Below, in pieces: positions 880 through 64,000 of a stretch of 64,000 nucleotides of DNA (position 1 is the stretch's first letter; each line of letters starts with the position of its first letter). The DNA lies in NCBI GenBank assembly GCA_052388515.1, contig JBQTHZ010000010.1:565-64564 (forward strand), given 5' to 3'. This DNA comes from Chloroflexota bacterium. GTDB taxonomy: Bacteria; Chloroflexota; Limnocylindria; QHBO01. Position numbers and translations under genes: made by a program. The notes beneath the pieces are model-generated. The model was given only the letters and a program-made list of their open reading frames with translations, was not told the DNA's origin and ran no database searches.

Positions 880-1800
880 CTACACCGGGAGGCGGACAAC
901 GTCGAAGCGGACGAGGAGTGCCAGCGCGACGGAGATGCCATTGACCATCGCGTGCATGGCGATCGGTGCGAGCAGGTTGCGCGTGCGCCGGTAGATCCAC
1001 GCGAGGGCGAGGCCCAGCAGGAAGATGGGCAGCACCGCGACCACCGAGATGTGGATGACGGCGAAGACCGCCGACGAACCGATGAATGCCCAGCGTGGTC
1101 CGCCCTCGCGCATCCAGGCGTTGAACACCACGCCGCGGAAGAAGACCTCCTCCGCGATCGGGGCGAGGATGACGACGGCCAGGATCACCAGCCATGGATC
1201 GACGAGCTGGATCGCCTGCTCCGCGGCCTGTGGCTGGGGTTCGAACCCCATCTGCTCCAACACCCAGACCACGCCGGCCGAGACGAGCGTCGCGCCGAGC
1301 CAGGCGACCACCCCCCAGCCGAGGCCGGCACGAACGGCGCCGGCGGGATCATGTCCGGGGAGCGACGGCAGCGCGGCGAGCGCTCCGGGCCGGAACACCA
1401 GGAACCAGCTGACCAGCAGGAGGGCGGCCTGCGTCGCGACGAGGAGCACGGCTCCCCCGAGGAAGGTGAGCTCGCCCTCGCCAAGGAGGAGCGCTGTCGC
1501 ATCGGTGCCGAAGGGGGCCGTGAAGATGGAGGCGAGCACCAGCACCAGGAGCAGGAGAACGAGCACGCCCGGTCCACGGTATCGCTCGGGTGGCAGGAAG
1601 CGGCGCACCCGAAGCTGCCGGATGGCGATGTAGAGGAGCCCCGTCGCGAACATGGCCGCGCCGAGCAGCGCGACCCAACCTAGCAGCGCGGAATCCTCCA
1701 CGCCGACCTGGCCTTCGATGGCCAGCGCACCGGTGCCCAGCGCGCCGATTCCGAGAAGGGCCCCGCCAACCACGAGGAGCGGACCCGGCCAGCGCGGCAT
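880..1800 (-). CDS. CPBP-family (CAAX/Abi) intramembrane metalloprotease
   Basis: A multi-TM ORF with the EEVFFRG...H motifs typical of the CPBP/Abi family. The start is placed at MPRWPG (ATG 1798-1800); the upstream ORF extension is Arg/Pro-rich and unlikely to be coding. Confidence 0.75.
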   Translation of the reverse strand: MPRWPGPLLVVGGALLGIGALGTGALAIEGQVGVEDSALLGWVALLGAAMFATGLLYIAIRQLRVRRFLPPERYRGPGVLVLLLLVLVLASIFTAPFGTDATALLLGEGELTFLGGAVLLVATQAALLLVSWFLVFRPGALAALPSLPGHDPAGAVRAGLGWGVVAWLGATLVSAGVVWVLEQMGFEPQPQAAEQAIQLVDPWLVILAVVILAPIAEEVFFRGVVFNAWMREGGPRWAFIGSSAVFAVIHISVVAVLPIFLLGLALAWIYRRTRNLLAPIAMHAMVNGISVALALLVRFDVVRLPV

Positions 1801-1895
1801 CGACACGCTCCGAGGGCCAGCCGTCGGATGCGGGCCGCTGGGCAACCCGCGTTGGCGTTCGGGCCCGTCTGGGTCCACGACCGACGCGCTCGGCG

Positions 1896-2507
1896 TCAGC
1901 TGTTGGTGGCGCCGCGCAGGCGGCCGTGCTCAGCCGTGGCGTCCGTGCTCGACTCCTCGTCGGCTGACGCCTCGACCGCCCCCGCCGCGGCCACCGGGGC
2001 CCGATTTCGGCGATGAGCCCGGGATGCGTCACGTCCGAAGTCCGTGCCGCAGAATGCGCACAGCGGCCAGTTCGGCTCCGCCAGGCGGTTGCACGATGGG
2101 CAGACACGGTGCAGGCGCGTGCGGCAGTTCGGACAGACGAGCCACTCGGTGTCGACACGGTCGCGGCAGACGGGGCAGAGCTCGTTCTTCTCCACCTCGG
2201 CCAGCAGGCTCTCCTCCGCGAGCGATCGCTCGTAGACCTCGGCGAGCGTCTCGCGCGGGCGCACGATCAGGAAGAGCACGACGGCGAAGATGAAGAGCAG
2301 CGGCGTGAAGAAGATGATGAGGGCGGCGGCGAAATACGGGAGGATCGGGTTCTCGGTCCGAGCCTGCATGTCGCGAAACGCCCAGTAGGCCGTGCCGAGC
2401 CAGAGGAGGACAACGTAGATCACGATCAGCTGGCTGGCCAGCTGCACGACCGGGTTGTTCAGGAACCCCTCCCAGAACTCACCGATCGGGTCGAGAATCG
2501 CTTCCAT
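1896..2507 (-). CDS. membrane protein with C-terminal double zinc ribbon
   Basis: Two N-terminal TM helices are followed by CPVCR...CPNCR...CPSC...CAFCG cysteine pairs. No specific family recognised. Confidence 0.55.
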   Translation of the reverse strand: MEAILDPIGEFWEGFLNNPVVQLASQLIVIYVVLLWLGTAYWAFRDMQARTENPILPYFAAALIIFFTPLLFIFAVVLFLIVRPRETLAEVYERSLAEESLLAEVEKNELCPVCRDRVDTEWLVCPNCRTRLHRVCPSCNRLAEPNWPLCAFCGTDFGRDASRAHRRNRAPVAAAGAVEASADEESSTDATAEHGRLRGATNS

Positions 2508-4245: not shown

Positions 4246-5691
4246 TCAGGTGCGCTCCAGCGCGAGCTTGTCGAGCTCGAGCGGCACATCGGTGGGGTAG
4301 ACGCCATCGAAACAGGCGGTGCATCGCGCGTCGGTCCGTCCGCCCACTGCCTCGAGCATGGCCTCCCTGCTCAGGTAGCCGAGCGAGTCGGCGCCGATCG
4401 CGGCCCGGATGCCCTCGAGCGAATGGTTCGCCGCGATGAGCTCGTCGCGGCGACCGGTGTCGACGCCCATGTAGCACGGGTGCTTCATCTGCGGCGAGTG
4501 GATCCTGACGTGAACCTCGGCCGCGCCGGCGCGCCGCAGCATCTGGACGATCGGTCCGGTCGTGGTGCCGCGCACGATCGAGTCGTCGACGACGACCACC
4601 CGCTTGCCGGAGAGCAGCTCGGGCAGCGGGTTGAACTTCATGCGCACCGCCTCGTCGCGGCTGCGCTGGGCAGGCTGGATGAAGGTGCGCCCCACGTAGC
4701 GCGACTTGATGAGGCCCTCCCGGTATGGCAGGCGCGCCTCCTCCGCGTAGCCGATGGCAGCAGGAATGGCCGAGTCCGGGACCGCGATCACAAGGTCCGC
4801 TTCCGCGGGATGCTCACGCGCCAGGCGCCGACCCATCTCGAGGCGCGCCTCGTACAGGAGCCTGCCGTCGATGACGCTGTCCGGCCTTGCGAGATAGACG
4901 AACTCGAAGACGCAGAGCTTCTCGCGATCCGGTGCCGCGCGAGCGGACCGATCCGAACGCACGCCATCATCGTCGATGGTGAGCACCTCGCCGGCATCAA
5001 CGTCACGCACGAAGCGGGCGCCCATGGCATCGAGGGCAGCCGACTCGGAGGCCACGGCCCAGCCACCGCCCGGCAGCCGTCCCAGGGCCAGCGGGCGGAA
5101 TCCGATCGGGTCGCGCGCCGCCACGAGCGCCGTCTCGGTGAGCATCGTGAATGTGAACGCGCCGATCGCGCGGTGGAAGGCGTGGTCGACGCGCTGCGCC
5201 CAGGTCCGCCCCGGCGCGTGGGCGATCAGCTTGGCCAGAACCTCGGTGTCCGATGCGGATCCGAACTCGATCCCCTGCTCGCTCAGCTCGTCCCGCAGCC
5301 AGGTCGCGTTGGTCAGGTTCCCGTTGTGCCCCAGCATGAGCTCGCCGATGTCGGCGCGCGCGTAGACCGGCTGCACGTTGGGAAGGGTGTTCGATCCCGT
5401 GGTGCTGTACCGGGTGTGGCCGATGGCCGCCTTCGGCGCGCGGCCTCCCTCGTCACGGGCCTCCAGTCGAATCAGGGTCTCTTCGTCGAAGACGCTGCTG
5501 ACGAGGCCGAGCCGCTTGTGGAGGCTGAGCTGTCCGCCATCGGTGACGGCAATGCCGGCCGACTCCTGCCCGCGATGCTGGAGCGCATGAAGGCCGAAGA
5601 ACGCCATCCGCGCCACCGGCGAGCCAGGTGCCCAGATGCCGACGACGCCACACTCCTCGCGCGGCCCGTGCGGTGCGTACGGCGCCTGCAT
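4246..5691 (-). CDS. purF: amidophosphoribosyltransferase
   Basis: An Ntn-type MxxECGVVGI N-terminus and a PRTase domain (VVVVDDSIVRGTT). The start is at the second Met (MQAPY). Confidence 0.9.
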   Translation of the reverse strand: MQAPYAPHGPREECGVVGIWAPGSPVARMAFFGLHALQHRGQESAGIAVTDGGQLSLHKRLGLVSSVFDEETLIRLEARDEGGRAPKAAIGHTRYSTTGSNTLPNVQPVYARADIGELMLGHNGNLTNATWLRDELSEQGIEFGSASDTEVLAKLIAHAPGRTWAQRVDHAFHRAIGAFTFTMLTETALVAARDPIGFRPLALGRLPGGGWAVASESAALDAMGARFVRDVDAGEVLTIDDDGVRSDRSARAAPDREKLCVFEFVYLARPDSVIDGRLLYEARLEMGRRLAREHPAEADLVIAVPDSAIPAAIGYAEEARLPYREGLIKSRYVGRTFIQPAQRSRDEAVRMKFNPLPELLSGKRVVVVDDSIVRGTTTGPIVQMLRRAGAAEVHVRIHSPQMKHPCYMGVDTGRRDELIAANHSLEGIRAAIGADSLGYLSREAMLEAVGGRTDARCTACFDGVYPTDVPLELDKLALERT

Positions 5692-5960
5692 GGGTAGCGT
5701 CTCACCGGTCCGCTGCCGCAGGCGAATGGGCGCGCGCACGGGATCGGTCAAGCGGGTCGGTGCGAGGCCGGCACCGACCCATCATAGCGAGCGGTGGCTG
5801 CCCGTTGATGCCATCGACGGCAGATCGGCATGGGTACGGGTGGAGTACTGCACCAGAGCGCATCCGCGGGATAACGGCGCCAATTGCGAGAGTGCCGCCA
5901 CGCAACGCGGGACCATCGGCCCATGGTCGATCCGGACCCTCCCCGCCATGCTTGACCGCG

Positions 5961-7595
5961 ATGCTCTTCTTCGTACGCCTCCTCGGCTTTCTCGCACCCT
6001 TCGCCGTGGCCGGCCTGGTGGTCGTGGGCCTGGCGGTGGTTGCACAGACCCAGCCGACCGATCGAGGCTCGCTTGCCTTCGTGGCCGCGAGCGCCGTCGT
6101 GGCGGGGATGACGACGATGGCCCTCCTGGCATGGAGCTATATCGGCTGGCGCCTGAATCGCATCGCGCAGGCGCTCGAGCGCACCCTCGAGACGGATGAG
6201 CCGGTTCGACTGCGCGAGGGTGGGATTCCGGGCGAGCGACGGCTGGCCCGCGCCTTCAACGCCGCCAGCGGCGCCTTCATCCAGGTCGAGGCCCGCGCCA
6301 CCCACGATCGGCTCACCGGCATTCCCAACCGCGAGACGCTCCTCGCCACCCTCGGCTCGGAAGTCGAGCGCGCCGTGCGCCATTACAAGCCCTTCAGCCT
6401 GGCGTTCATCGACATCGACCGCTTCAAGCCGATCAACGACACCTACGGCCACAACGCGGGCGACGCGGTCCTGCGCCAGGTCGCGCGCCTGATCGCGGGC
6501 GGCGTGCGCGTCAACGATGTCTTCGGTCGCTACGGCGGCGAGGAGTTCATGCTGATCCTGCCCGAGACATTGCCGGATGACGCCGTGCGGCTGGCCGAGG
6601 AGCTGCGGGCCCTGGTTCAGCAGGAACCCCTGCGCGTCGCGGACGACCAGGTCGTGAACGTCACCATCAGCATCGGCATCGCAGGCGGTCGCGGCGCCGA
6701 GCTGCAGCTGGACATGCTCGTCGACCGAGCCGATGCGGCCATGTATGCCGCCAAGTCCCTTGGAAGGAACCGCACCTACCAGTTCCGTGATCTCGACGAC
6801 GAGGCACCCGTGCCGCGGGCACCGATCTCGGCCGAACGCCGGGCACAGGCGACCGCCATCGGCCAGTGGGCGAGTGACACGGCCACGCAGGCGCTCGCAT
6901 CGGTCCTTGCCCCGCAGGCGAACCACCGCGGACGCCCATCGGACATGATCGCGGCGCTCGCGACCGGGATCGGGCTCGAGATGGGACTGCCGTCGGAGGA
7001 GATCGAGCGGATCAGGATCGCCTCGCTCCTCCACGATTTGGGCAAGATCGCGATCCCCGAGGACATCCTCGACAAGCCGACCATGCTCACCGCTGCCGAA
7101 TGGCAGGCCATCGGCGAGCATCCGCGCATCGGCCAGGTCATCCTCGAGCAGGCGTCCAACCTGCGCGAAGCCATCCCTGTCGTCCTGCATCACCACGAGC
7201 GCTTCAACGGCGGCGGATATCCGCACGGCCTCAAGGGCAACGAGATCCCGCTCGGCGCCCGGATCGTCAGCGTCGCCGATGCATACCACGCCATGGTCCA
7301 CGAACGACCGTACAGCGCTGCGCTGACCCACGAGGAGGCTTTGGAGGAGCTCAGACGGCACGCAGGCACACAGTTCGATCCGGACGTCGTCGAGGTGTTC
7401 TGCGCCACCTACGACGCCGCGGTACCGCCGGATGGGCTGGAAGAGGTGTACCGCCTCCATGAACGGGCGCGCGGTGGCCTCGCGCACCTCCACCCCAGCG
7501 GTCACCACCACCCGCACCCCGGTGACGCGACCGGGCCCGACCCCGGGACCACGCGCCCGAGACGCAGGGCCCGCGCACGCGAGGCATCCGGCTGA
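5961..7595 (+). CDS. membrane-anchored diguanylate cyclase (GGDEF) fused to HD-GYP phosphodiesterase domain
   Basis: Two N-terminal TM helices, a GGDEF domain (RYGGEEF) and an HD-GYP domain (HHERFNGGGYPHGL). The start is ATG 5961 (MLFFVRLLG); the longer ORF upstream is Arg-rich junk. Confidence 0.85.
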   Translation: MLFFVRLLGFLAPFAVAGLVVVGLAVVAQTQPTDRGSLAFVAASAVVAGMTTMALLAWSYIGWRLNRIAQALERTLETDEPVRLREGGIPGERRLARAFNAASGAFIQVEARATHDRLTGIPNRETLLATLGSEVERAVRHYKPFSLAFIDIDRFKPINDTYGHNAGDAVLRQVARLIAGGVRVNDVFGRYGGEEFMLILPETLPDDAVRLAEELRALVQQEPLRVADDQVVNVTISIGIAGGRGAELQLDMLVDRADAAMYAAKSLGRNRTYQFRDLDDEAPVPRAPISAERRAQATAIGQWASDTATQALASVLAPQANHRGRPSDMIAALATGIGLEMGLPSEEIERIRIASLLHDLGKIAIPEDILDKPTMLTAAEWQAIGEHPRIGQVILEQASNLREAIPVVLHHHERFNGGGYPHGLKGNEIPLGARIVSVADAYHAMVHERPYSAALTHEEALEELRRHAGTQFDPDVVEVFCATYDAAVPPDGLEEVYRLHERARGGLAHLHPSGHHHPHPGDATGPDPGTTRPRRRARAREASG

Positions 7596-13971: not shown

Positions 13972-14868
13972 TCAGTGCCACGGGCGCCCGGTGAGCCGCT
14001 CGAAGGCCGCGACGTACCGATCACGAGTGCCCCGGATGACGTCGTCAGGAAGCAGTGGCGCCGGTGGCTCCTTGTTCCATCCCGCGTCGGAAACGAAGTC
14101 ACGCACGAATTGCTTGTCGAAGCTCTGCGGGCTCGACCCCGGCGCATACTGCTCGGCGTCCCAGAAGCGAGACGAATCCGGGGTCAGCACCTCGTCGATG
14201 ACCGCCAGCGCGCCGTCGATGAAGCCGAACTCGAACTTCGTGTCCGCCAGGATCAGCCCGACCGCCTCCGCGCGTCGGGCGCCCTCGACGTAGAGCGCAA
14301 TCGATCGTTCCTCGAGCTGGCTCGCCAGGTCCGCGCCGACCAGGCCCGCGAGCTGCTCGCGGCTGATGTTCTCGTCGTGCCCGATCTCCGCCTTCGTCGA
14401 TGGCGTGAAGATCGGCTCCGGCAGACGGTCCGCCTCCCTCAGACCCTCCGGCAGTCGATGGCCGCACACGGATCGGCTGCGCTGGTACTCGGCCCAGCCT
14501 GAGCCAGCCAGGTAGCCGCGCACGACGCACTCCGCATCCACCCGGTCAGCCCGGCGCACGAGCATCGAGCGCGGGGCCAGCTCGCGGGTGCGCGCCGGCT
14601 CCGGCAGGCGTTCGCGGTCGGCACTGACGAAGTGAGAGCGGCCAAGCCCTGCGAGCTGCTCGAACCACCAGGCCGACAGGCGGGTCAGGACGGCGCCCTT
14701 GTCGGGAATCGGCTGCTCGAACACGACGTCGAAGGCAGAGATGCGGTCGGTGGCGACGAGCAGAAGATGGCGGTCGTCGACCTCGTACGTCTCCCGCACC
14801 TTGCCGCGGTGCACCAGTGGCATCGATGCGATCTCGCTGCGCAGCAGCGTCTTCGATGCGGTCATTCG
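13972..14868 (-). CDS. purC: phosphoribosylaminoimidazole-succinocarboxamide synthase (SAICAR synthetase)
   Basis: A ~298-aa protein beginning MTASKTLLRSEIASMPLVHRGKVRETYEV, the long actinobacterial-type PurC. The huge upstream ORF extension is Arg/Gly-rich junk. Confidence 0.9.
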   Translation of the reverse strand, partial: RMTASKTLLRSEIASMPLVHRGKVRETYEVDDRHLLLVATDRISAFDVVFEQPIPDKGAVLTRLSAWWFEQLAGLGRSHFVSADRERLPEPARTRELAPRSMLVRRADRVDAECVVRGYLAGSGWAEYQRSRSVCGHRLPEGLREADRLPEPIFTPSTKAEIGHDENISREQLAGLVGADLASQLEERSIALYVEGARRAEAVGLILADTKFEFGFIDGALAVIDEVLTPDSSRFWDAEQYAPGSSPQSFDKQFVRDFVSDAGWNKEPPAPLLPDDVIRGTRDRYVAAFERLTGRPWH

Positions 14869-15359
14869 TCCTCCTCTTGGCTCTTGTCGTCGATTGGCTC
14901 CGGCCCGCGGTGAGTCCGGATGTTGAGTCGGCGCTTCGCGATTCGTTCGAGTCGCTGAAAGACCTCCAGCGCCACGATCACCAGCACGGTGCTGACGCCG
15001 GCGATGACGAGGAGTCCAGCTCCGGCCGCCATGCCCACGGCCGCAACCGCCCAGAGCGACGCCGCCGTCGTCAGGCCGCGCACGGTGCCGCCGTAATGAA
15101 GGATGGCGCCACCGCCGAGGAAACCGATGCCCGACACGATCTGGGCTGCAATCCGAGTCGGATCCGATCCTGGGCCGGTCAATCCATATGCGCTGATGAC
15201 GGTGAAGATGGCCGCGCCGAGCGACACGAGCGCATGGGTCCGAAAGCCTGCCGGCATGCGCTGCAGCTCTCGTTCCCACCCGATCACGGCGCCGAGCACG
15301 AGCGCCACCACGAGACGGGCGGTGAGCTCGATCTGCGTCTCGAGGCTCAGGGTTTCCAC
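14862..15359 (-). CDS. MgtC/SapB family membrane protein
   Basis: 165 aa with the conserved MgtC N-terminal domain (LGAVIGWERE...GFRTHALVSLGAA). Confidence 0.75.
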   Translation of the reverse strand: METLSLETQIELTARLVVALVLGAVIGWERELQRMPAGFRTHALVSLGAAIFTVISAYGLTGPGSDPTRIAAQIVSGIGFLGGGAILHYGGTVRGLTTAASLWAVAAVGMAAGAGLLVIAGVSTVLVIVALEVFQRLERIAKRRLNIRTHRGPEPIDDKSQEEDE

Positions 15360-16246
15360 GGCGACTCAGGTCCTTCCGGATGCATCGGTCGCGAGGAGTC
15401 GCGACCACGTGGCGGCCGACCACGCATGGAGCGCTCCGCCGGCCAGGACCAGGCAGAGCCAGGTCGCCACGAAGCCTACCAGCAGCAGCCCGATGGCGAC
15501 CTCGATCTCTCCGCCACCATCCAACCGAACTCCGATCGGCGCCCACAGGACGGCGAGCAGCAGGGTTGAGAAGCCGAGGAAAGCGAGCTGGATCGCGCAC
15601 GCGGCGATCGCATGGATCGTCGACGACGCACCGAGCGTCACGGATGGCGCCGATCGCAGCACCCTCGAAAGGCCACCTCGACCTCGCAGGACGAGCCGAC
15701 CGGCCACGGCCGCGAGCGCGCCACCGGCCACCACCGTCACGCCCAGGAGGGCCAGGTATGGCGTGAGACTCGTGAGCGTGCGCAGGACTGGCCCACTGGC
15801 CGGGTCGGGTGCGTTGAACTCGCGCGGGGCGATCACGGCCGCAGCCAGCAGGACCACCAGCATCGCGAACACCGCGGGCAGCGCCGCGACGAGATAGACG
15901 GCCAGCAGACGAGCGGCGTCGGAGCTGGCCGACGCACGGCGCTCGAGCTGGGCGATGAGGATGGCGTTCGCGATCGCCGTCAGCGTGAACGCCGCAAGGA
16001 CGATGGTCACGATCACGGCGCCCATGAGGACCGCGTTCCAGGGCCAGGCGCCGGACGTCACGGTGCGGGCGCCAAGGAAGGTCAGCTCGGCCACCGATGG
16101 TGGTCTGGCGACCGCCACCAGGAACGGCAGCCATCCGACGCAGGATAGCCACGCAAGCGCCCCCGGCACCCACAGCTCCGGCCGGGCCGATACGAACCGC
16201 GCCGACTCGACCGCGGCTTCACGCCAGCGACGCAATGCGCACGCCT

Positions 16247-19710: not shown

Positions 19711-22701
19711 CTACTCCCCGGTCAGGTCAGCAAGGGACTCGAGCACGGCTTCCAGCTCGTCGATCCGTTCCTGGTAGGTGCCGAGGTCACCCGCATCGAG
19801 CGCCGCCTGCGCCTCGCCGTAGAGGCGCTGGGCCTCGGCAACCAGGTCGGCCACGTTGGACGGCAGCTCTCCCGGTGACTCGTCCGGTGCGCCGGGCGAG
19901 GGTGACGGAGCCGGTGACTCGCCGGGATCGGTCGGCTCCGGGACCTCCGGGGGAGGTGGCTCGGCCTCGCCGAGGAGCTGGCGAAGGCCCTCCTCCACCG
20001 TCTCCGCGAACGCGACGCGTCGCTGGTCGGCCATGATCACCCGCACGAACTCGGGGAACGGGGCGCCCTCCGCCTGGAGGAAGATCGGCTCGACATAGAG
20101 GAGCCCGTCCTCGCCGATCGGCAGGACCAGCAGGTTGCCGCGCACGACCCGTGAGCCGGCGCTCGACCACAGGGTGAACTGCTCGCTGATGGCATCGTCT
20201 GCGCCGATGCGCCCCTCGATCTGCACCGGGCCCTGCGTCGAGGTGCCGGTCGGGAACTGGAACGCGATGCGCTCGCCGTAGACGCCGGGGTCCATGCGGG
20301 CCGCGACCCAGGCGATCATGTTCGGACGGTCCTCGGGGACCATTGGCTGGATGAGGACGAACTCGGCCTCGTCCTCGCCCGGGATGCGCATGATCACGTA
20401 GTAGGGCTCCATCGGCTGCCCGTTGCCGGCCACCACGTCCTCGGGGATCGCCCAGCGATCGTCCTCGTTGTAGAAGGTCGTGGCGCCGTTCTCGGTCGCC
20501 GGCAGGTGGTAGAGCCGGTAGGCCTCGTTCTGCGCGACGAAGAGGTCCTCGGGGTATCGCAGGTGCGCCTGCAGGCCCTCCGGCATCGCGGAGAGCGGCT
20601 CGAACAGGTCCGGGAAGATGCGGGCGTAGGCGGCCACGATCGGGTCGTCCGGATCGGCCAGGAAGAAGCGGACCGTGCCGTCATAGGCATCGACCACCAC
20701 CTTCACGCTGTTCCGCACGTAGTTCGCGCCGGCGAAGCGGCTGGTCGACGGGAGGGGCTGCGCATTCGGATAGCGGTTGCTGACGGTGTAGGCGTCCCAG
20801 ACCCAGAGCAGCCGGTCGTCGGCGCTGACGATGTACGGATCTCCGTCGTACGCCAGGAACGGGGCGATCTCGGGCACGCGCTCACCGATGGCGCGCCGGA
20901 ATAGCACCTGCGACTCATCGGTCAGCTGGTTGCTGATCAGCATGTTGAAGTCGCCGAAGCGAAGCGCGAAGAGCGCGCGCGCCAGGGGATTTCCGATCCC
21001 CACGCCGGTCGAGCCGTTCCAGACCGTCTCGGCCCCGGCCTCGCCGCCCTCGCTTCCGTCGGTATCGAGCGGATAGTCGAACTCCGCGGTCGTGGTCCCG
21101 GTGACGATGTAGGTGTCGGTCTCCTCGCCGAAGTAGATGCGAGGCTGGTCCAGCGGCAGCTGCGGATCGCGGTTGATGCCGCTGACCAGGTAGTCCGGGG
21201 TGCCCTGGTCCGTGACCGCGTCGACCGGCACGGCGGTGATGCCGTAGCCATGGGTGTAGACGAGGCGCTCGTTCGTCCAGGTGCGGCTCTCGCCGAAGCG
21301 TTCGACGTCCAGCTCACGCGCGCTCAGCATGATCTGGCGCTGTTCGTCCCCGATCTCGTAGCGGTCGATGTCGACGTCGGAGAAGGTGTAGTAGCGACGC
21401 AGGATCTGCTGCTGGCCGAAGGTCGTCAACAGGGGCCGGTAGTCCCACAGCCGCAGGTTGTCGATGGTGGCCGCATCGTCCACGAAGACCTCGCGGGTCA
21501 GATCCTGCTCGCCGGTGAAGCGCCGCTGCTCGATCGCGTCGAGGTCGAAGGCGCGCCGCGTCGAGGTGATGTGGTCGACGATGTACTCGCGCTCGACGTT
21601 GAGCTCGTTCGGGTTGACCTGCACCGTCTGCACGAAGCTCGGGTAGAGGCCGCCGACCAGGATCGACAGCACGATCCAGGCGCCGGCCGCCAGGCCGAGC
21701 AGCCACAGGGTGCGGAACCAGGTGTTGAGCAGCAGGACGGCGGCGGCAGCGAGGGCGACGACGGTCAGGATCACCGAAGCAGGGAGCTGCGCGTTGACGT
21801 CGGTGTAGAGCGCTGCCTGCACGCTCCCGCTCAGCCCGCGCGTGGAGTAGGTGAGCTCGGCGATATCGAGCTGGTAGCCCCCGGCGATCACGGCGAGCAG
21901 CAAGGCGCCGATGACCGACAGGTGCGCCCGCACCGGCGCGCTGAGGCGGAACTGCCACCGCAGTGCCCGCGCCGCGTAGGCGCCAAGTGTCAGCAGCCCG
22001 ATGACGATGAGGGTCGTCGATCCCCATCCGAGCAGGAATCGCCAGAACGGCAGGTCGAACACGTAGAAGCCGACGTCGCGGCCCAGCGTCGGATCGGTGA
22101 CGCCCCACTCGCCGCCATTCAGGAAGAGCAGCACGAGCTCCCAGTTGCCGCTCCACGCAGCGGCGGAGCCGAGCGACAGGAGGACCGCCACGGCCGTGAG
22201 CCCAATGGCGATCGCGCGAGACGCATCCGGCATCTCGATCCCACCCAACTCCCGCACCGGCGACTGCGGCGCGATGCGGCTCGCCAGCCAGATGCTGAGC
22301 AACGCCGGCACGAGCATGGCGACGAAGCCGATCGCGAACAGCGCCACCTGCGACCAGAGCCGCGTCTGGAGCACGTCGCGTCGACCGAGCGCGTCGTACC
22401 ACATGACGTCGCTGATCAGGTTGACGACACCACCGAGCAGACCGAGCACGACGAGCAGGGCCAGGATTCCGCCACCGATCAGCAGGTATCGGCGCCATGG
22501 CACGTCACCGCCCGCGATCGGTGGGAAGGTGGGCCCGTCACCGCCACCGTTCGTTCGACGTTGCCCTCGCTCCTTGTCGATCGGCGTCACGTTGCGCTCG
22601 CGACCTGCACGACGCTCGAAGGGACGGCCTTCCCGGCGAGCATCCGCCTCTTCCTGGCGGCGCTGAAGGTCCTCGAGCAGCTTGTCGAACCAGCTTGACA
22701 T
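19711..22701 (-). CDS. UPF0182 family large membrane protein
   Basis: ~996 aa with N-terminal TM helices and the conserved GRDVGFYVFDLPFWRF and YY.F.DVDIDRY blocks typical of UPF0182. The start is placed at MSSWFDKLL (ATG 22699-22701). Confidence 0.8.
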   Translation of the reverse strand: MSSWFDKLLEDLQRRQEEADARREGRPFERRAGRERNVTPIDKERGQRRTNGGGDGPTFPPIAGGDVPWRRYLLIGGGILALLVVLGLLGGVVNLISDVMWYDALGRRDVLQTRLWSQVALFAIGFVAMLVPALLSIWLASRIAPQSPVRELGGIEMPDASRAIAIGLTAVAVLLSLGSAAAWSGNWELVLLFLNGGEWGVTDPTLGRDVGFYVFDLPFWRFLLGWGSTTLIVIGLLTLGAYAARALRWQFRLSAPVRAHLSVIGALLLAVIAGGYQLDIAELTYSTRGLSGSVQAALYTDVNAQLPASVILTVVALAAAAVLLLNTWFRTLWLLGLAAGAWIVLSILVGGLYPSFVQTVQVNPNELNVEREYIVDHITSTRRAFDLDAIEQRRFTGEQDLTREVFVDDAATIDNLRLWDYRPLLTTFGQQQILRRYYTFSDVDIDRYEIGDEQRQIMLSARELDVERFGESRTWTNERLVYTHGYGITAVPVDAVTDQGTPDYLVSGINRDPQLPLDQPRIYFGEETDTYIVTGTTTAEFDYPLDTDGSEGGEAGAETVWNGSTGVGIGNPLARALFALRFGDFNMLISNQLTDESQVLFRRAIGERVPEIAPFLAYDGDPYIVSADDRLLWVWDAYTVSNRYPNAQPLPSTSRFAGANYVRNSVKVVVDAYDGTVRFFLADPDDPIVAAYARIFPDLFEPLSAMPEGLQAHLRYPEDLFVAQNEAYRLYHLPATENGATTFYNEDDRWAIPEDVVAGNGQPMEPYYVIMRIPGEDEAEFVLIQPMVPEDRPNMIAWVAARMDPGVYGERIAFQFPTGTSTQGPVQIEGRIGADDAISEQFTLWSSAGSRVVRGNLLVLPIGEDGLLYVEPIFLQAEGAPFPEFVRVIMADQRRVAFAETVEEGLRQLLGEAEPPPPEVPEPTDPGESPAPSPSPGAPDESPGELPSNVADLVAEAQRLYGEAQAALDAGDLGTYQERIDELEAVLESLADLTGE

Positions 22702-22938
22702 GTGCGGGCATGCTACCGGGTCCCGCCTGGGTCCGCGCCGCAGCGCTGATGTGCCGTCAGGATCGGGTCGGCCAGGCTCGATCTTCGCCGGGCCAGCAAT
22801 TCCCGGCAGAGGTGGCCTCCAGCACGGCCACACGAGAGCTCGCGAGGTCCTTGCTCACGGTGTCGTCCGACTGCGCGCGTACCTTTCCGGATTGAGCGCT
22901 CGGTGAGTCCTTCAGGAGCAGGGCGCGCGGATCCGCGC

Positions 22939-44838: not shown

Positions 44839-45576
44839 TTGGCTGAGGACGCGCCGTTCGACGAAGACGACCAGCCCGTAGAAAGCGAGGCCGACGATCG
44901 CGAGCATGGCGAGCGCGACGAACATGAGTGGGGTGTCGAAGAGCCCCTGGTTGGCGATGTTGATGAGCACGCCGAGCCCGATCGAGGCACCCGCCCATTC
45001 GGCGACCACCGCGCCGATGACGGCCAGCGTCACGCCGACGCGCAGGCCGCCGAAGATGACCGGGAGGGCGGACGGGATCTCCAGCACACGGGTGCGCTGC
45101 GGTGTCGTGGCGCCCAGGCTGCGAAGCATCTCGGTCAGCAACGGGTCGGTGGAGCGGATCCCGACCATGGTGGCGATGGCGATCGGGAAGAAGACGATGA
45201 GCGCACAGATGACGACGCGCGCCAGCAACCCGCCGCCGAACCAGATGTCGAGGAGCGGCGCCAGCGCCAGGATCGGGACCGCCTGCGCGGCCACGATGTA
45301 GGGCGACAGGACCCGCTCGATGAGCACGCTCTTGCCGAGCGCGATCCCTGTCAGCACGGCCGTCGTGGCGCCGACCGCGAAGCCGAGCACGATCTCGAGC
45401 AGTGTCACGACGGTGTGCTCCCACAGGATGCCGGAGCCGATCGCGCGCCAGGCGCGCTCGCCGACGACCTCTGGCGCGGGCAGGATGTACTCCGGGTACC
45501 CGCCGATGACAGTCGCCAGCTTCCAGATCACGATGAACGCCCCAAGGCTGAGCAGCGCGGCGGCGATGCGTTTCAC
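44836..45576 (-). CDS. ABC transporter permease (binding-protein-dependent, SsuC/TauC-like)
   Basis: ~246 aa with 6 TM and an EAA-like loop (LRSLGATTPQRTRVLEIP). A GTG start overlaps the ATPase stop (GTGA). The longer ORF N-terminus is junk. Confidence 0.85.
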   Translation of the reverse strand: MKRIAAALLSLGAFIVIWKLATVIGGYPEYILPAPEVVGERAWRAIGSGILWEHTVVTLLEIVLGFAVGATTAVLTGIALGKSVLIERVLSPYIVAAQAVPILALAPLLDIWFGGGLLARVVICALIVFFPIAIATMVGIRSTDPLLTEMLRSLGATTPQRTRVLEIPSALPVIFGGLRVGVTLAVIGAVVAEWAGASIGLGVLINIANQGLFDTPLMFVALAMLAIVGLAFYGLVVFVERRVLSQ

Positions 45577-46400
45577 GCGGCCCCCTCCTGCTCCGCCCAC
45601 GGCCGCAGCTCGAGCGCGTGCACCGAGAGGAGCGCATCCCGCACCTCGGCGGCCAGCTCGGCAGCGCGTGGGTGACCCAGTAATTCGGTGGGTCGCGGGC
45701 GAGGCAGATCCACGTCCACGATGCGCGCCACGCGGCCCGGCCGCGGTGTCATGACGACCACCCGGTCGCCGAGGGCGATCGCCTCGCTGACGCTGTGGGT
45801 GACGAGGACCACCGTCCGGCGCTGGTCCAGCCACAGCCGCTGCAGCTCGCCGTCGAACGTCTCCCTGGTCAGGGCGTCGAGCGCGCTGAACGGCTCGTCG
45901 AGCAGGAGCACTGGCGGGTCGCCGATGAGCGCCCGGGCCAGCGCGGCGCGCTGCGCCATTCCACCCGAGAGCTCCCGCGGCAACAGGCTCGCGGCACCCG
46001 CGAGGCCGAGCCGGTCGAGGGCGCGTGCCGCGCGCTTGCGCCGCTCGCCCGACGGAGCGCCGGACAGCTCGAGCGGAAGGGCGACATTCTCGAGCGTCGA
46101 GCGCCACGGCACCAGCCTCGGCTGCTGGAAGGCGAGTCCGACCCTCCCGTCACCTGGCAGCGGTGCTCGCCCATCCACCGAGACGGCACCCGTCGTCGGC
46201 GAGAGCAGGCCGGCCACGAGCCTCAGCAGGGTGCTCTTGCCGCATCCGTTCGGCCCGATGATGACCGTGAATGAGCCGGCCTCGATCTCCAGGCTGCAGC
46301 CGGACAGGGCCTCGACGCCGCCGCCCCGCGCGCCGAAGCGCACGCCGACGTCGTCGATCCTGACGTCGAGGCCGGCGAGTGCGGTCGGCTGCAAGCTCAT
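45573..46400 (-). CDS. ABC transporter ATP-binding protein
   Basis: Walker A GPNGCGKST, signature LSGGMAQR and Walker B LLLDEP. Confidence 0.9.
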   Translation of the reverse strand: MSLQPTALAGLDVRIDDVGVRFGARGGGVEALSGCSLEIEAGSFTVIIGPNGCGKSTLLRLVAGLLSPTTGAVSVDGRAPLPGDGRVGLAFQQPRLVPWRSTLENVALPLELSGAPSGERRKRAARALDRLGLAGAASLLPRELSGGMAQRAALARALIGDPPVLLLDEPFSALDALTRETFDGELQRLWLDQRRTVVLVTHSVSEAIALGDRVVVMTPRPGRVARIVDVDLPRPRPTELLGHPRAAELAAEVRDALLSVHALELRPWAEQEGAA

Positions 46401-46996
46401 CGTGCTCCCGTGCTGGCGTTGTCATCGCGCACGGGGCATCGCCACCGCCTCCGCCGAGGCGCGGCGGAGTGCGTGGCCGTCTTCTCCCTTCCGGACTGTG
46501 ACCGTCGGCCCTGTCTACCCCGGCGCTGCGCCGGGGGTCAGGTCAGCCGCATCAATGCCTGATCGATGCGGTTCGCGGGCTGGCTCGGTCTCGAGCCGAC
46601 CGCCGGTGGGGACTTTCACCCCGCCCCGAAGACGATGGATGGTTCGATTGGCCCGATCGTGGCACGCGCCGCGGTGGCGGTCAACTCCCTGCCGCCGTTC
46701 GTCGTGCATCAGTTTGGGGTACGACGCCCGACCGCCACAACCACCGGAACACGAGCGAGGCTGCTGCGACGCCGAGTGCGGTCGGGGTGCTCGGGACCGG
46801 CAGTACCTCGCGTTCCATCGAGGCCACAGCGCCGGAGGTCGATGGGAGGCGCGACTCTCGCGATTCACGACCACGGCACGCGCCTGACCTGCGCCCGGGG
46901 GCGGGGGCTTACGCGTGGTGGTTTCGCCAGACCGCGAGAATCGCGCCCGAGACGGACCTCGGGCGTCCAGGTCTACATAGATCGCGACGCGGACGG

Positions 46997-59882: not shown

Positions 59883-61217
59883 TCAGTCCGCGGCGTTCAC
59901 CGTCTGAGCCAGCAGCTCATCGGTCGAAGCGTGAGCGACGAGGATCTCGCCATTGGGCAGCTCCGTGACGGAGGCCGGAAAGTCCAGCCCGTCCACCACG
60001 GTTCCGTAGGCGGCAAGGAACTCGTTCGCGTCGGCCGGGGAGTCCCAGGCCAGTCGCCAAGCCACGGCGAATGCGTCGTCCGGGCCGGTCACGATCACCG
60101 CCCGATCGCCGCCCCACCCGTCACTCGCCTCCTGGGCATCGAGCAGCGACACGCCGAAGTACTCGAGCATGATGTTGATGGTGGCCTCCCCGATCGGCGT
60201 GGCGTCGACCTCCTCCCATCCATCGCCAAGCGCAGCTGCGAGGTCCGGCAGCTGGACGGTATCAGGCGTCTCACGGGACTCCCACGCCTCGAGGTCGATG
60301 ATCTGCTCGGTCGATGCAGGCGGGTCGTCGTACGCGGCGTCGATCTCGGCGAAGTCTGGATTGGTCGGGTCGCCACCGGCCAGCGCGGTGCTCCAGGTCA
60401 GCCCGGCATCGTAGGGAAAGGCAAGCTGCGCGACCATCCATGACGGGATGCCGCTGGTGTCCGGGATCTCGACGCTCTCGAAGTACTCGAGAATCTCGCC
60501 CTGGCTCAGGTGCTGAAGCATCCAGGACAGCATGGTCACGGTCGCGTCTCCCTCGATGAGCGCGACCCGCGCAAGGCCTCGGTCATCCTCGCCGTCGGCG
60601 TCCGTCTCGAGTGAGTCGAGCCCGAAGGCGGCGTCCTGGAGGGCATGCGTGTACTCGTGGGCATAGGTGATGCGTGCCTCGACGTCGAGCCCGGCGTCGG
60701 AGACGATGACCATCCGCTTCTCGATGTCATCGTAGAAGCCGAGCACCTGGTCACCGAGCAGCTCGAGCTGGAGCTCGGCGATGTCCTGGTCCGCCGCGAG
60801 CAGGCCCAGCGCGCGCAACGCGATGTTGTCCCGCTCGCGCTCCTCGAGCGGATACTCCTCGTCGAACAGCTCCAGCAGCTCTTCGGCGAGCTCCTCGCGG
60901 CTGATGATCTCGGCGGGTCCGATGTCGGCCTCTGCCAGGCCTCGGATCGCCGTCACCTGCTGCTCGATCTCGTCGAGGATGGCCTGCGCCTCGGCCGCAC
61001 CCGGGATCGACGCCTCCGGGCTGGCACTGCCAGCCACTGATGCCTCGGCGCTGGGACTGGCGCCGGACGGGGCCGACGGTCGACTCGTCGGAATTGCCTC
61101 AGGGCCGAGGCCGATCTCGGCGCCGCCGGCGCGCAGGCCGAGGATTGCGACCGCCGCGACCAGGAGGATGGAGACCAGGAGGAGGACGAGTCGGTGGGCA
61201 GCAGCCATCGACGCCAT
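59883..61217 (-). CDS. hypothetical secreted/membrane-anchored protein with HExxH motif (HEYTHALQD), putative zinc metallopeptidase-like
   Basis: N-terminal TM/signal anchor, then a Ser/Ala/Pro linker and an acidic globular domain with a single HExxH motif. Confidence 0.5.
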   Translation of the reverse strand: MASMAAAHRLVLLLVSILLVAAVAILGLRAGGAEIGLGPEAIPTSRPSAPSGASPSAEASVAGSASPEASIPGAAEAQAILDEIEQQVTAIRGLAEADIGPAEIISREELAEELLELFDEEYPLEERERDNIALRALGLLAADQDIAELQLELLGDQVLGFYDDIEKRMVIVSDAGLDVEARITYAHEYTHALQDAAFGLDSLETDADGEDDRGLARVALIEGDATVTMLSWMLQHLSQGEILEYFESVEIPDTSGIPSWMVAQLAFPYDAGLTWSTALAGGDPTNPDFAEIDAAYDDPPASTEQIIDLEAWESRETPDTVQLPDLAAALGDGWEEVDATPIGEATINIMLEYFGVSLLDAQEASDGWGGDRAVIVTGPDDAFAVAWRLAWDSPADANEFLAAYGTVVDGLDFPASVTELPNGEILVAHASTDELLAQTVNAAD

Positions 61218-62327: not shown

Positions 62328-62580
62328 GATCGGCGGGCCAACCGCCGATCGGCAGTCGCCATTGGTACTGGGACCAGCGTTGCCTGAGCGCACCGGGAAT
62401 TCGCGCACCGTCCTCCCCGGACCTCAGCGGACGCCACAAAACTCCCAAAACTTCCCTATTACCAAAGTACCGGTCGCTCCCTATACTCGCCGAGCCGATG
62501 AGCGTTGGGACTCATTTCATAGCCCAGACGATCGGTAGCAGGGGTGCTGGATTTCATCCAGGGGAAGGAACGGATTTATC

Positions 62581-63654
62581 GTGAGACTCAATCGTAGGAG
62601 CAGGGGGTCGCGGTTGCTCGTGCTGACGAGCTCGATGACGCTTCTGCTCTCCAGCGTGTACTTCGCCGCGATCCCGGTGCTCGCGGCGCACACCATCACC
62701 ATCAACGACTACGACGAGACCGCGCACGAGTGCGGCAACGACGGCGGCTTCAAGATCGAGGCCGAATGGGTCCAGGATGGTGAGCACACCTACCACCTTC
62801 GCGACGGCGCCGACAACCTCCTCTTCAGCGTGAAGATCGACGCCACGTTCGATGACGAGAACGAGTTCAAGGAGTTCGACTACTCGAACGCGAACCCGGT
62901 TCCCGAATACGTCGTCGTGTTCGGCGCCGGCCAGGAGAAGGAGTATCCGGGTGGCGCGAGCGGCAACAATCTCACGACCCTGACGGGCCAGGAGATCAGC
63001 CACATCTCGTTCTGTGGCGAGGAAGAGGTGACGGCGACCGCGACGGCAACGGCGACCGCGACGGCGACCGCGACGGCAACGGCAACCGCGACCGCAACGC
63101 CGCGCGAGGAGGAAGAGGACGACGCCGCGCTGAACATCCGCAAGGTGGATGAGGACGGCAACCGACTCGAGGGCGCCGTCTTCACCGTCGAGGGGATGGA
63201 CGGCACGTTCACCACCAACGACCGTGGCTTCTTCTGCATCACCGGTCTCGAGAACGACTCGGAGTGGCTGGTGACCGAGATCGAGGCGCCCGAAGGCTAC
63301 GAGATTGCCGACGAGCCGTCTCAGATGGTCGAAGTCGATGACGACGGCGACTGCAGCAGCCCGGACGCGGTGTTCGTGAACACCCTTGCCGAGGAGGAGC
63401 CGGAGGAGCCGGAGCAGCCGGAGGAGCCGGGCGGGACGACGGAGCCGAACCAGAGCGGCCCATCGCCGACGCCCCGCGAGGACACTGCCGGTGGCAACCC
63501 GACCCCGAAGCCGCGCCGCGGCGCCCTGCCCGACACGGCGATCTCGGAAGGCTCGTCCGCTCCGATTCCTGCCGGGGTGGCTGCCCTGGTGGCCCTTGCA
63601 TCCCTCAGCGTCCTGGCCGGAGTCCGGTTCGCGGAGGTCCGCTCGCGCCGGTAG
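62581..63654 (+). CDS. cell-surface protein with SpaA/prealbumin-like fold domain, (Thr-Ala)n and (Glu-Pro)n low-complexity linkers and C-terminal sorting-signal-like LPDTA + TM + basic tail
   Basis: GTG start with a GGAAGGA RBS and a signal peptide. The central domain LNIRKVDEDGNRLEGAVFTVEG...GFFCITGLENDSEWLVTEIEAPEGYEI is typical of SpaA-like isopeptide/adhesin B domains. The C-terminus RRGALPDTAISEG...AGVAALVALASLSVLAGVRFAEVRSRR looks like a sortase-type sorting signal. Confidence 0.7.
   Translation: MRLNRRSRGSRLLVLTSSMTLLLSSVYFAAIPVLAAHTITINDYDETAHECGNDGGFKIEAEWVQDGEHTYHLRDGADNLLFSVKIDATFDDENEFKEFDYSNANPVPEYVVVFGAGQEKEYPGGASGNNLTTLTGQEISHISFCGEEEVTATATATATATATATATATATATPREEEEDDAALNIRKVDEDGNRLEGAVFTVEGMDGTFTTNDRGFFCITGLENDSEWLVTEIEAPEGYEIADEPSQMVEVDDDGDCSSPDAVFVNTLAEEEPEEPEQPEEPGGTTEPNQSGPSPTPREDTAGGNPTPKPRRGALPDTAISEGSSAPIPAGVAALVALASLSVLAGVRFAEVRSRR
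63031..63096 (+). repeat. simple sequence repeat (ACGGCGACCGCG)n encoding (Thr-Ala)11
   Basis: ~5.5 copies of a 12-nt unit with minor A/G variation, in-frame inside the surface-protein gene. Confidence 0.8.
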
Positions 63655-63673: not shown

Positions 63674-63705
63674 GTCACGGCCCCGGATCAGCCTGGGGCC
63701 GTGAC
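63674..63705 (+). terminator. stem-loop GTCACGGCCCC-10nt-GGGGCCGTGAC downstream of the surface-protein gene
   Basis: An 11-bp perfect stem 20 nt after the stop codon. Confidence 0.5.
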
Positions 63706-63808
63706 CCAGACGCCGGAGGCGTCGGTCGTCAGGATCGGCGCCTCGGAAACCCAGGGTGGCGCAAGCGCACGTTTCTTGGCCCATTGATCCAGCCCCCCTG
63801 GCAGGGAC

Positions 63809-63840
63809 GGGGTAGAGGTTCGCCTCTACCCCGTCTTCTG
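63809..63840 (+). terminator. stem-loop GGGGTAGAGG-ttcg-CCTCTACCCC followed by GUCUUCUG
   Basis: A 10-bp perfect stem with a tetraloop and a U-rich tail. This is the second hairpin after the surface-protein gene. Confidence 0.5.
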
Positions 63841-64000
63841 ATGCCACCCGTGGCGTCGTAGCCGCTAGGGCCGGGTGCGTCTCGGCCGCTCCGTTGGCTG
63901 TGGCTTCGAGGACTGCTCCGGGTTCGCGGTGTGCGCCGGCTTCGGCGTTCGGTCCGGCTTCGCTGATGGGTGGGGCTTCGGCGTTCGGTCCGAGCGCGGC

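Follow-up and report, generated by a model that had tools for sequence, protein, structure and literature searches.

Sortases of class D use LPXTA signals, and SrtC of Bacillus anthracis cleaves LPNTA substrates after the threonine and links them to diaminopimelic acid (PMC8225981). Among the domains carried by cell-surface proteins, the SpaA family (PF17802) is a Lys/Glu/Asp-Asn isopeptide family for which the triads have been listed, and disulfides beside isopeptide bonds have been reported to be common in Chloroflexota (PMC12617251). Here we describe a gene that combines an LPXTA-like C-terminus with a SpaA/CnaB-type domain. It lies close to one end of a 64,000-nt stretch of contig JBQTHZ010000010.1 (assembly GCA_052388515.1; the whole stretch is referred to below as the window), which comes from a member of the Limnocylindria. 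These bacteria, also known as Ellin6529, RIF-CHLX or 'Eulabeiota', are abundant in soil and freshwater and uncultured, and their cell surface is essentially uncharacterised. The gene encodes a genuine secreted cell-surface protein with an architecture of a known kind, in which a signal peptide, an N-terminal all-beta domain, a Thr-Ala linker, the SpaA/CnaB-type domain, an acidic stalk and a sorting-type signal follow one another (Table 1). We consider it probable that the product is a Sec-exported stalk-and-tip wall protein which is cut by a sortase-type enzyme after Thr319 and joined to peptidoglycan in the manner of class D LPXTA signals.

Domain architecture and the predicted isopeptide bond

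The SpaA family of Pfam matches residues 184-256 with a score of 52.4 bits (E = 6e-14), which is above the gathering score of 23.1. Residues 181-270 were modelled by AlphaFold2 with a predicted local distance difference test (pLDDT) score >90, and the structural matches returned by Foldseek include the B. anthracis TIE protein (6fwv), BcpA (3kpt) and CnaB2 of FbaB (2x5p); a phmmer search of the PDB also gives matches. The SpaA/prealbumin-fold domain proposed in a preliminary description of this DNA, made from the sequence alone, is thus borne out, and the Lys/Asn/Glu triad for which that description suggested looking can be assigned. Lys188 (63142-63144), Glu233 (63277-63279) and Asn267 (63379-63381) do not vary among 20 homologues; the same is true of Cys219 and Cys258. 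In a BLAST alignment with CnaB2/SpyCatcher, Lys188 and Glu233 align to Lys31 and Glu77, respectively. Asn267, by contrast, falls two residues off Asp117 of CnaB2, which speaks against its assignment, so that its proposed role rests on its invariance and on the family pattern, this residue being located within the VFVN motif of the last strand that is typical of the family. An isopeptide bond between Lys188 and Asn267, catalysed by Glu233, is expected to form.

The predicted signal peptide region appears as a helix (residues 9-34) in the structure model and is 51%, 63% and 43% conserved in three homologues with a different N-domain (P0003, P0007 and P0010, respectively). For the N-terminal domain itself, searches detected no relative of known function; it is presumed to be the tip, or ligand-binding, domain, and the label 'adhesin' is a guess by analogy. 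On the other side of the SpaA domain, the stalk opens with a Glu-Pro repeat (EEEPEEPEQPEEP) at residues 271-283, which Tandem Repeats Finder (TRF) describes as 4.2 copies of a 9-nt period at 63393-63430.

A conserved sorting-type signal at the C-terminus

After the LPDTA motif come a spacer of 10 residues, a hydrophobic stretch of 18 residues (AGVAALVALASLSVLAGV) and the basic tail RFAEVRSRR. This is the general tripartite layout of sortase substrates, with motif, hydrophobic segment and basic tail all within ~30-45 residues of the C-terminus. The tail is not peculiar to this protein. From the homologues and every long open reading frame (ORF) in the fetched loci, we gathered 78 unique tails with the consensus [L50 V21 T12 Q12]-P-[D73 N26]-T99-[A88 S9], where the numbers are percentages; given that the regular expression used for selection allowed D/N/E/G, T/G/S and A/G/S/L at motif positions 3-5, they describe picks among the allowed alternatives. 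LPNTA occurs in several members and LPDTG in one. The distance from the motif to the C-terminus is 34-46 residues, the last ten residues include two to five Arg or Lys, and a semi-conserved GG(N/T)(P/G)TPxP box precedes the motif by 5-14 residues in the family (6-13 in the window protein). The same signal is found on unrelated passengers, namely SpaA proteins with at least six different N-domains, CLIPPER/DUF11 proteins of 1000-1600 aa, a streptogrisin-like protease and P0047, which carries the signal without a SpaA domain. The LPDTA motif, hydrophobic segment and RSRR end that had been read as a sortase substrate are therefore present as part of a conserved sorting-type signal, for which sortase signals are the nearest curated models.

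The tails were compared with the curated models of NCBIfam. The most frequent weak match is LPXTG_anchor (TIGR01167; cut-off 15.9 bits), which hits 8 of 56 tails at E≤1 with a best E of 2.8e-4 and stays below the cut-off in the displayed cases; the window protein, with LPDTA, does not belong to this family. Nor does it belong to sorting_LPXTATN (NF058670), which weakly matches three of the 56 tails (best E = 0.14), the window tail not being among them. The LAXTG and NPXTG models are also among the weak matches, MYXO-CTERM hits three tails (E of 0.067 or higher), and GVDTG_CTERM (NF058571), a model of the xxDTG type, gives sub-threshold matches to two, whereas PEP-CTERM, PGF-CTERM and GlyGly-CTERM match none of the 56. 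GVDTG_CTERM and sorting_LPXTATN are recently curated models of C-terminal sorting signals; a literature search for 'GVDTG' found nothing relevant. As judged by sequence, the tail is nearest to known sortase signals and a member of no curated model.

How the protein might reach and join the cell wall

We propose that the protein would be exported by the Sec pathway and displayed on the cell surface of monoderm Candidatus Limnocylindria, a lineage reported to be without outer-membrane genes and to have genes for peptidoglycan synthesis (bioRxiv 10.1101/2021.08.23.457424). The tip would be an orphan, disulfide-clamped beta-sandwich that might bind a ligand, held on a flexible Thr-Ala linker the length of which may drift between strains by in-frame repeat slippage. 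Below it, the CnaB/SpaA domain would lock itself by the Lys188-Asn267 bond, with Glu233 as the catalyst, and the Glu/Pro-rich segment would span the wall. The precursor would be held in the membrane by LPDTA, the spacer, the membrane helix and the basic tail, then cut after Thr319 by a sortase-type transpeptidase, most likely encoded elsewhere in the genome, and the cleaved protein would be joined to peptidoglycan, as by class D sortases with LPXTA/LPNTA signals.

Several results weigh against this scheme. The whole window protein has no match among the curated sorting-signal models of NCBIfam, nor does its tail, even at E≤10. The first motif position is only loosely defined (L/V/T/Q), and for a sortase signal the spacer is long, with the most hydrophobic 15-residue stretch beginning on average ~11 residues past the motif. 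A hidden Markov model (HMM) built from 57 sortases (positive control, 1.6e-76) detected no sortase in the six-frame ORFs of the window and ~440 kb of related Limnocylindria loci, the best E being 0.16, and a regular expression for TLxTC, applied to the window and the related loci, likewise found none. Protein databases were searched with a high-GC sortase from a Streptomyces plasmid and then with a profile of 27 distant matches; no sortase named as Limnocylindria appeared among the matches listed (56 in the first search and the best 120 of 7847 in the second), the named ones being from Actinobacteria or Acidobacteria. Two sortase matches on long contigs are in other genomic contexts, one of them (L029) in the actinobacterial crgA-sortase-pknB arrangement. 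No paper linking Limnocylindria with a sortase was found in the literature. The loci and window examined represent ~1-3% of any one genome, and the genes for housekeeping sortases usually lie apart from those for their substrates, so that the absence of a sortase near these loci says little.

The strongest competitor, which we nevertheless regard as unlikely, is that the xPDTA tail is a lineage-specific signal for a non-sortase enzyme, akin to exosortases, archaeosortases, rhombosortases or CPBP-type myxosortases, and that the protein is attached to a lipid or another envelope polymer. It would account for the lack of a sortase gene near any of ~25 loci, several of which contain two to four tandem anchored proteins, for the failure of the tails to reach any curated sorting-signal cut-off, for the additional GG(N/T)(P/G)TPxP box and the variable first position, and for the weak matches of GVDTG_CTERM to two tails; a candidate of the CPBP type is even present in the window. 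Yet Pro and Thr are invariant, Thr is followed by a small residue, and LPDTG or LPNTA turns up occasionally, all of which is exactly sortase-like, and the weak model matches are mostly to sortase signals. Furthermore, no polytopic membrane protein or other uncharacterised family recurs beside these genes in the related loci, the CPBP gene is 60 kb off and its family ubiquitous, and the missing linkage is, as stated above, no guide to the enzyme. The CPBP gene in question (883-1929, minus strand) encodes a 9-transmembrane (TM) Rce1-like protein (PF02517, E = 1.3e-23) of a very common family that includes C-terminal sorting proteases such as myxosortase.

Somewhat less likely again is that the C-terminus serves as an uncleaved membrane anchor, with LPDTA being merely a part of the stalk. 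The region in front of the motif is generally Pro/Thr-rich, the window tail matches no curated sorting-signal model, and no processing enzyme was identified in the window, in the related loci or among the database matches listed, all of which would fit such an anchor. However, conservation of the motif's P, T and A is 88-100%, within the limits set by the selecting regular expression, at a position confined to 34-46 residues from the C-terminus, across 78 tails and unrelated passengers, whereas the linker sequence flanking it is free to vary. A fixed motif amid a variable linker is the pattern expected of an enzyme recognition site and not of a passive stalk. That the protein is instead a pilin which, like SpaA or BcpA, is polymerised by a sortase into a pilus is most improbable: the SpaA-fold domain, structural matches that include the BcpA, RrgB and SpaA pilins and the annotation of one homologue as 'SpaA isopeptide-forming pilin-related' might suggest it, but the sequence has a single CnaB domain and no YPK(N) pilin motif, there is no class C sortase in the locus or the orthologous loci, and a variable tip domain on a stalk fits a monomeric fibrillar surface protein better. 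Cleavage by a sortase-type enzyme and attachment to peptidoglycan thus continues to be the explanation that we favour.

Linker length polymorphism and mosaic evolution

The linker between the two domains is a Thr-Ala repeat (TATATATATATATATATATATAT), that is, (TA)11 followed by T, at residues 151-173. TRF describes the underlying array as period 12 x 5.0, 6 x 10.5, 18 x 3.7 or 30 x 2.1. As anticipated in the preliminary description, its length varies between related strains: in L032/P0001, which is 92% identical, a clean 36-nt deletion between nearly identical flanks leaves 5.5 Thr-Ala units versus 11.5 in the window protein, and in other homologues Thr-Pro runs take the position of the repeat. 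We considered and rejected the possibility that the repeat is a phase-variable on/off switch, given that its units of 6, 12 or 18 nt lie inside the ORF and that the variation seen is an in-frame 36-nt indel; units that are multiples of three change the linker length only.

The differences between homologues extend to entire domains. For instance, P0003 and the window protein share 96% identity over the SpaA domain and 93% over the anchor, whereas their N-domains, at only 16%, are non-homologous. Two SpaA domains in tandem are present in the strain represented by L033 (95% identical) and likewise in P0002 and P0005. The L033 contig opens at the end of one SpaA domain and runs straight into the second (L033 1-631), the break falling just after the repeat-rich region; the abutting domains indicate that SpaA was duplicated in tandem compared with the window. 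Loci also differ in how many anchored proteins they encode (one to four). The site is conserved in the chromosome, and the N-domain is exchanged there between lineages, along with the numbers of SpaA domains and of neighbouring anchored proteins.

In several lineages, the gene directly 3' of that for the SpaA protein encodes a giant CLIPPER/DUF11 protein of 1000-1600 aa that carries the xP(D/N)TA tail as well (L003, 11449-16182; L005, 13304-17205; L009, 10453-15333; also L020, L021 and L024), so that the site behaves as a variable surface-protein island. A more sweeping proposal, and a doubtful one at this stage, would be that [L/V/T/Q]-P-[D/N]-T-A together with the GGxPTPxP box marks a class-wide 'PDTA-CTERM' sorting system of Candidatus Limnocylindria, outside the curated models, in which the enzyme is a divergent sortase of new specificity or a different enzyme altogether and the locus is a recombination hotspot for the exchange of tip domains.

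Distribution and genomic context

The named sources of the 50 homologues found are all Candidatus Limnocylindria, except for one metagenome-assembled genome (MAG) labelled Zixibacteria and one protease annotation of the Joint Genome Institute (JGI). A scan of the GTDB representative genomes yielded 21 loci, 18 of which are from Limnocylindria, Chloroflexota or unclassified MAGs, with the best match being 47% identical; the genome of the window was not one of them. An exact search for the window protein in public assemblies gave no record either. The GC content of the window (69.2%) agrees with the class mean of 68.9% (PMC10608941).

The gene order argS, DUF8575 (minus strand), Lactamase_B_3, surface protein(s), an optional pair of anti-sigma-like and extracytoplasmic function (ECF) sigma factor genes, and aminotransferase is kept in ~15 MAG loci. 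The flanking genes are much better conserved than the surface protein: ArgS and Lactamase_B_3 are 80-84% and 91% identical, respectively, to those of MAG loci L001, L002 and L013, whereas the surface protein is ~47% identical, over its full length, to the orthologues in L001 and L002. Strain L033 (95% DNA identity) shows what follows immediately past the window edge, namely the anti-sigma-like gene (L033 850-2390), the ECF sigma factor and then the aminotransferase. The Pro/Lys-rich C-terminal tail of the anti-sigma-like protein contains an 18/36-nt tandem repeat (63917-63992). The ECF sigma/anti-sigma pair is located convergently downstream in many loci, including beside a related anchored protein in the non-syntenic L004, which made it a candidate functional partner. 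We rejected this candidate and treat the pair only as a neighbour because it is missing from several syntenic loci and because the L004 sigma factor is only 31% identical.

DUF8575 adjoins the surface-protein locus in the ~15 MAG loci and is absent from the non-syntenic L004. Its representative in the window (59883-61217, minus strand) is divergently placed, has a membrane helix at its N-terminus and contains the zinc-protease motif HEYTH (HExxH). Elsewhere, the window contains ordinary chromosomal genes, such as those for a GGDEF and HD-domain protein (5547-7592, plus strand), a 1047-aa UPF0182 membrane protein (19714-22854, minus strand) and an MgtC-family protein (14865-15365, minus strand), as well as a flavin mononucleotide (FMN) riboswitch (RF00050, 79.7 bits, E = 1.8e-16) at 46475-46637 on the minus strand, 5' of an ORF at 45576-46421 (minus strand).

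Table 1. Features of the surface-protein gene and its surroundings (positions are those of the window; aa, residues of the surface protein)
Feature	Position	Strand	Description
Terminator-like hairpin	62328-62350	+	Perfect 9-bp stem and 5-nt loop, GATCGGCGG-GCCAA-CCGCCGATC; directly 3' of the Lactamase_B_3 stop codon
Sigma-70-like promoter	62459-62487	+	TTACCA-17-TATACT; ~94 nt 5' of the start codon
Palindrome CTGGAT-TTC-ATCCAG	62547-62561	+	Immediately 5' of the ribosome-binding site
Shine-Dalgarno-like sequence GGGAAGGAA	62562-62570	+	Ends ~10-11 nt before GTG; kept in L002 and L001
Surface-protein coding sequence	62581-63654	+	GTG start, TAG stop, 357 aa; 50 homologues; GC content at third codon positions (GC3) 0.88
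Predicted signal peptide, aa 1-35	62581-62685	+	Arg-rich n-region, long hydrophobic core, VLA-A cleavage-type end (read from the sequence)
Orphan N-terminal all-beta domain, aa 36-147	62686-63021	+	Two conserved Cys (HEC51, SFC145)
(Thr-Ala)11.5 in-frame simple-sequence repeat, interdomain linker	63031-63099	+	aa 151-173; length-polymorphic
SpaA/CnaB-type (prealbumin-like) domain, aa 181-270	63121-63390	+	Pfam, structure model, Foldseek, PDB phmmer, invariant columns
Acidic Pro-rich stalk, aa 271-315	63391-63525	+	Glu-Pro repeat at 63391-63429; semi-conserved GGNPTPKP box
LPDTA sorting motif, aa 316-320	63526-63540	+	Read from the sequence and the family consensus
Hydrophobic helix, aa 331-348, and basic tail RFAEVRSRR, aa 349-357	63571-63651	+	Sequence; predicted helix 332-356
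Hairpin with 11-bp perfect stem, between convergent genes	63674-63705		Terminator-like, without a T-run
Hairpin with 13-bp perfect stem and TTCG loop, between convergent genes	63806-63835		Inverted-repeat search
3' end of convergent anti-sigma-like gene	63865-64000	-	Pro/Lys-rich tail; cut by the window edge

Expression signals and base composition

The 240 nt upstream of the gene have a GC content of 58.8% compared to 69.2% for the window, placing them at the 0.2th percentile of all 240-nt windows, and the lowest-GC 240-nt stretch of the entire 64 kb (55.8%) is at 62421-62660. The AT-richer upstream region of the preliminary description is thereby corroborated; its suggestion that the locus might be horizontally influenced is not. 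The GC3 of the gene (0.88) is native when set against 0.83 ± 0.04 for the genes of the window. Low GC is found only in the non-coding promoter, in the 5' untranslated region (UTR) and in the N-domain, where it reflects the amino-acid content, as seen from a GC content at second codon positions (GC2) of 0.36. Together with the synteny of the locus across Limnocylindria, where the ~15 MAG loci keep the order from argS, DUF8575 and Lactamase_B_3 to aminotransferase, native codon usage led us to reject a horizontally acquired island.

The sigma-70-like promoter is a candidate to drive the gene from within the most AT-rich stretch of the window. One such promoter was found versus 0.1 expected, and its boxes (TTACGA/GTACCA ... 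TATACT/TATGCT) align in the orthologous loci L002 and L001. The terminator-like hairpin behind the Lactamase_B_3 gene would separate the two transcription units. The CTGGAT-TTC-ATCCAG palindrome is present where it had been described, but its value as evidence of regulation is weak at best. It is unremarkable on its own, because 43 pairs of inverted repeats with 6-nt arms occur in the same 1.7 kb, and its arms recur in place in the closest orthologues only (L001/L008 and L032, and L002 with a loop 1 nt shorter). A riboswitch or structured leader was sought in the 5' UTR, with no Rfam match and with folding no better than that of shuffled sequence (z = +0.99). The tetramer GTAC, often in the form GGTAC(C/T), is 4-10x commoner 5' of surface-protein genes than across the loci (window 62328-62580 and the regions upstream of the orthologues in L002, L003, L005, L009, L020, L021 and L022), an enrichment that may simply reflect the lower GC of these regions.

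Relation to known surface proteins

The protein is a lineage-specific variant of a known system, which overturns no current ideas and suggests no new biology. It is of interest because its compact CnaB domain combines an isopeptide triad with a pair of cysteines and because it is a natural case in which tip-domain cassettes are swapped while stalk and anchor are conserved, and the C-terminal signal could serve to list the surface proteome of the whole class. Provided that a sortase is confirmed in this lineage, Gram-positive wall anchoring, in an LPXTA-like form, would be extended to another monoderm lineage.

In overall organisation, the protein resembles the fibrillar adhesins and MSCRAMM-like proteins of Gram-positive bacteria, with which it shares a signal peptide, a variable N-domain, low-complexity linkers, repeated stalk domains of variable number and a wall-sorting signal at the C-terminus. 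At 357 aa, it is very short by comparison, and adhesion is only an analogy given that the tip has no detectable relative of known function. The central domain compares closely with CnaB-type domains, such as the Cna B repeats, CnaB2 of FbaB (the parent of SpyCatcher/SpyTag) and the B. anthracis TIE protein 6fwv, in its PF17802 match, its prealbumin-like model and the placement of Lys, Glu and Asn on the expected strands. It differs from them in being a single copy (two in some strains), in the extra invariant Cys219/Cys258 pair and in that the bond is predicted.

For the C-terminal signal, the closest counterparts are the LPXTA/LPNTA substrates of class D sortases, including the SrtC-anchored BasH and BasI of B. 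anthracis and the 'LPXTA carbohydrases' of Bacillus cellulosilyticus. The present signal departs from these in that its host belongs to an uncultured Chloroflexota-related class and not to Bacillota, position 3 is always Asp or Asn while position 1 varies (L/V/T/Q), the spacer is longer, a GGxPTP box lies upstream, and no sortase was detected in the window or the related loci; the class D LPxTATN model weakly matches only 3 of the 56 tails and not the window protein. Conversely, Pro2, Thr4 and Ala5 are the same, the exact LPNTA motif occurs in some of the homologues, in both groups the motif precedes a hydrophobic helix and a basic tail, and the host is likewise a monoderm with peptidoglycan.

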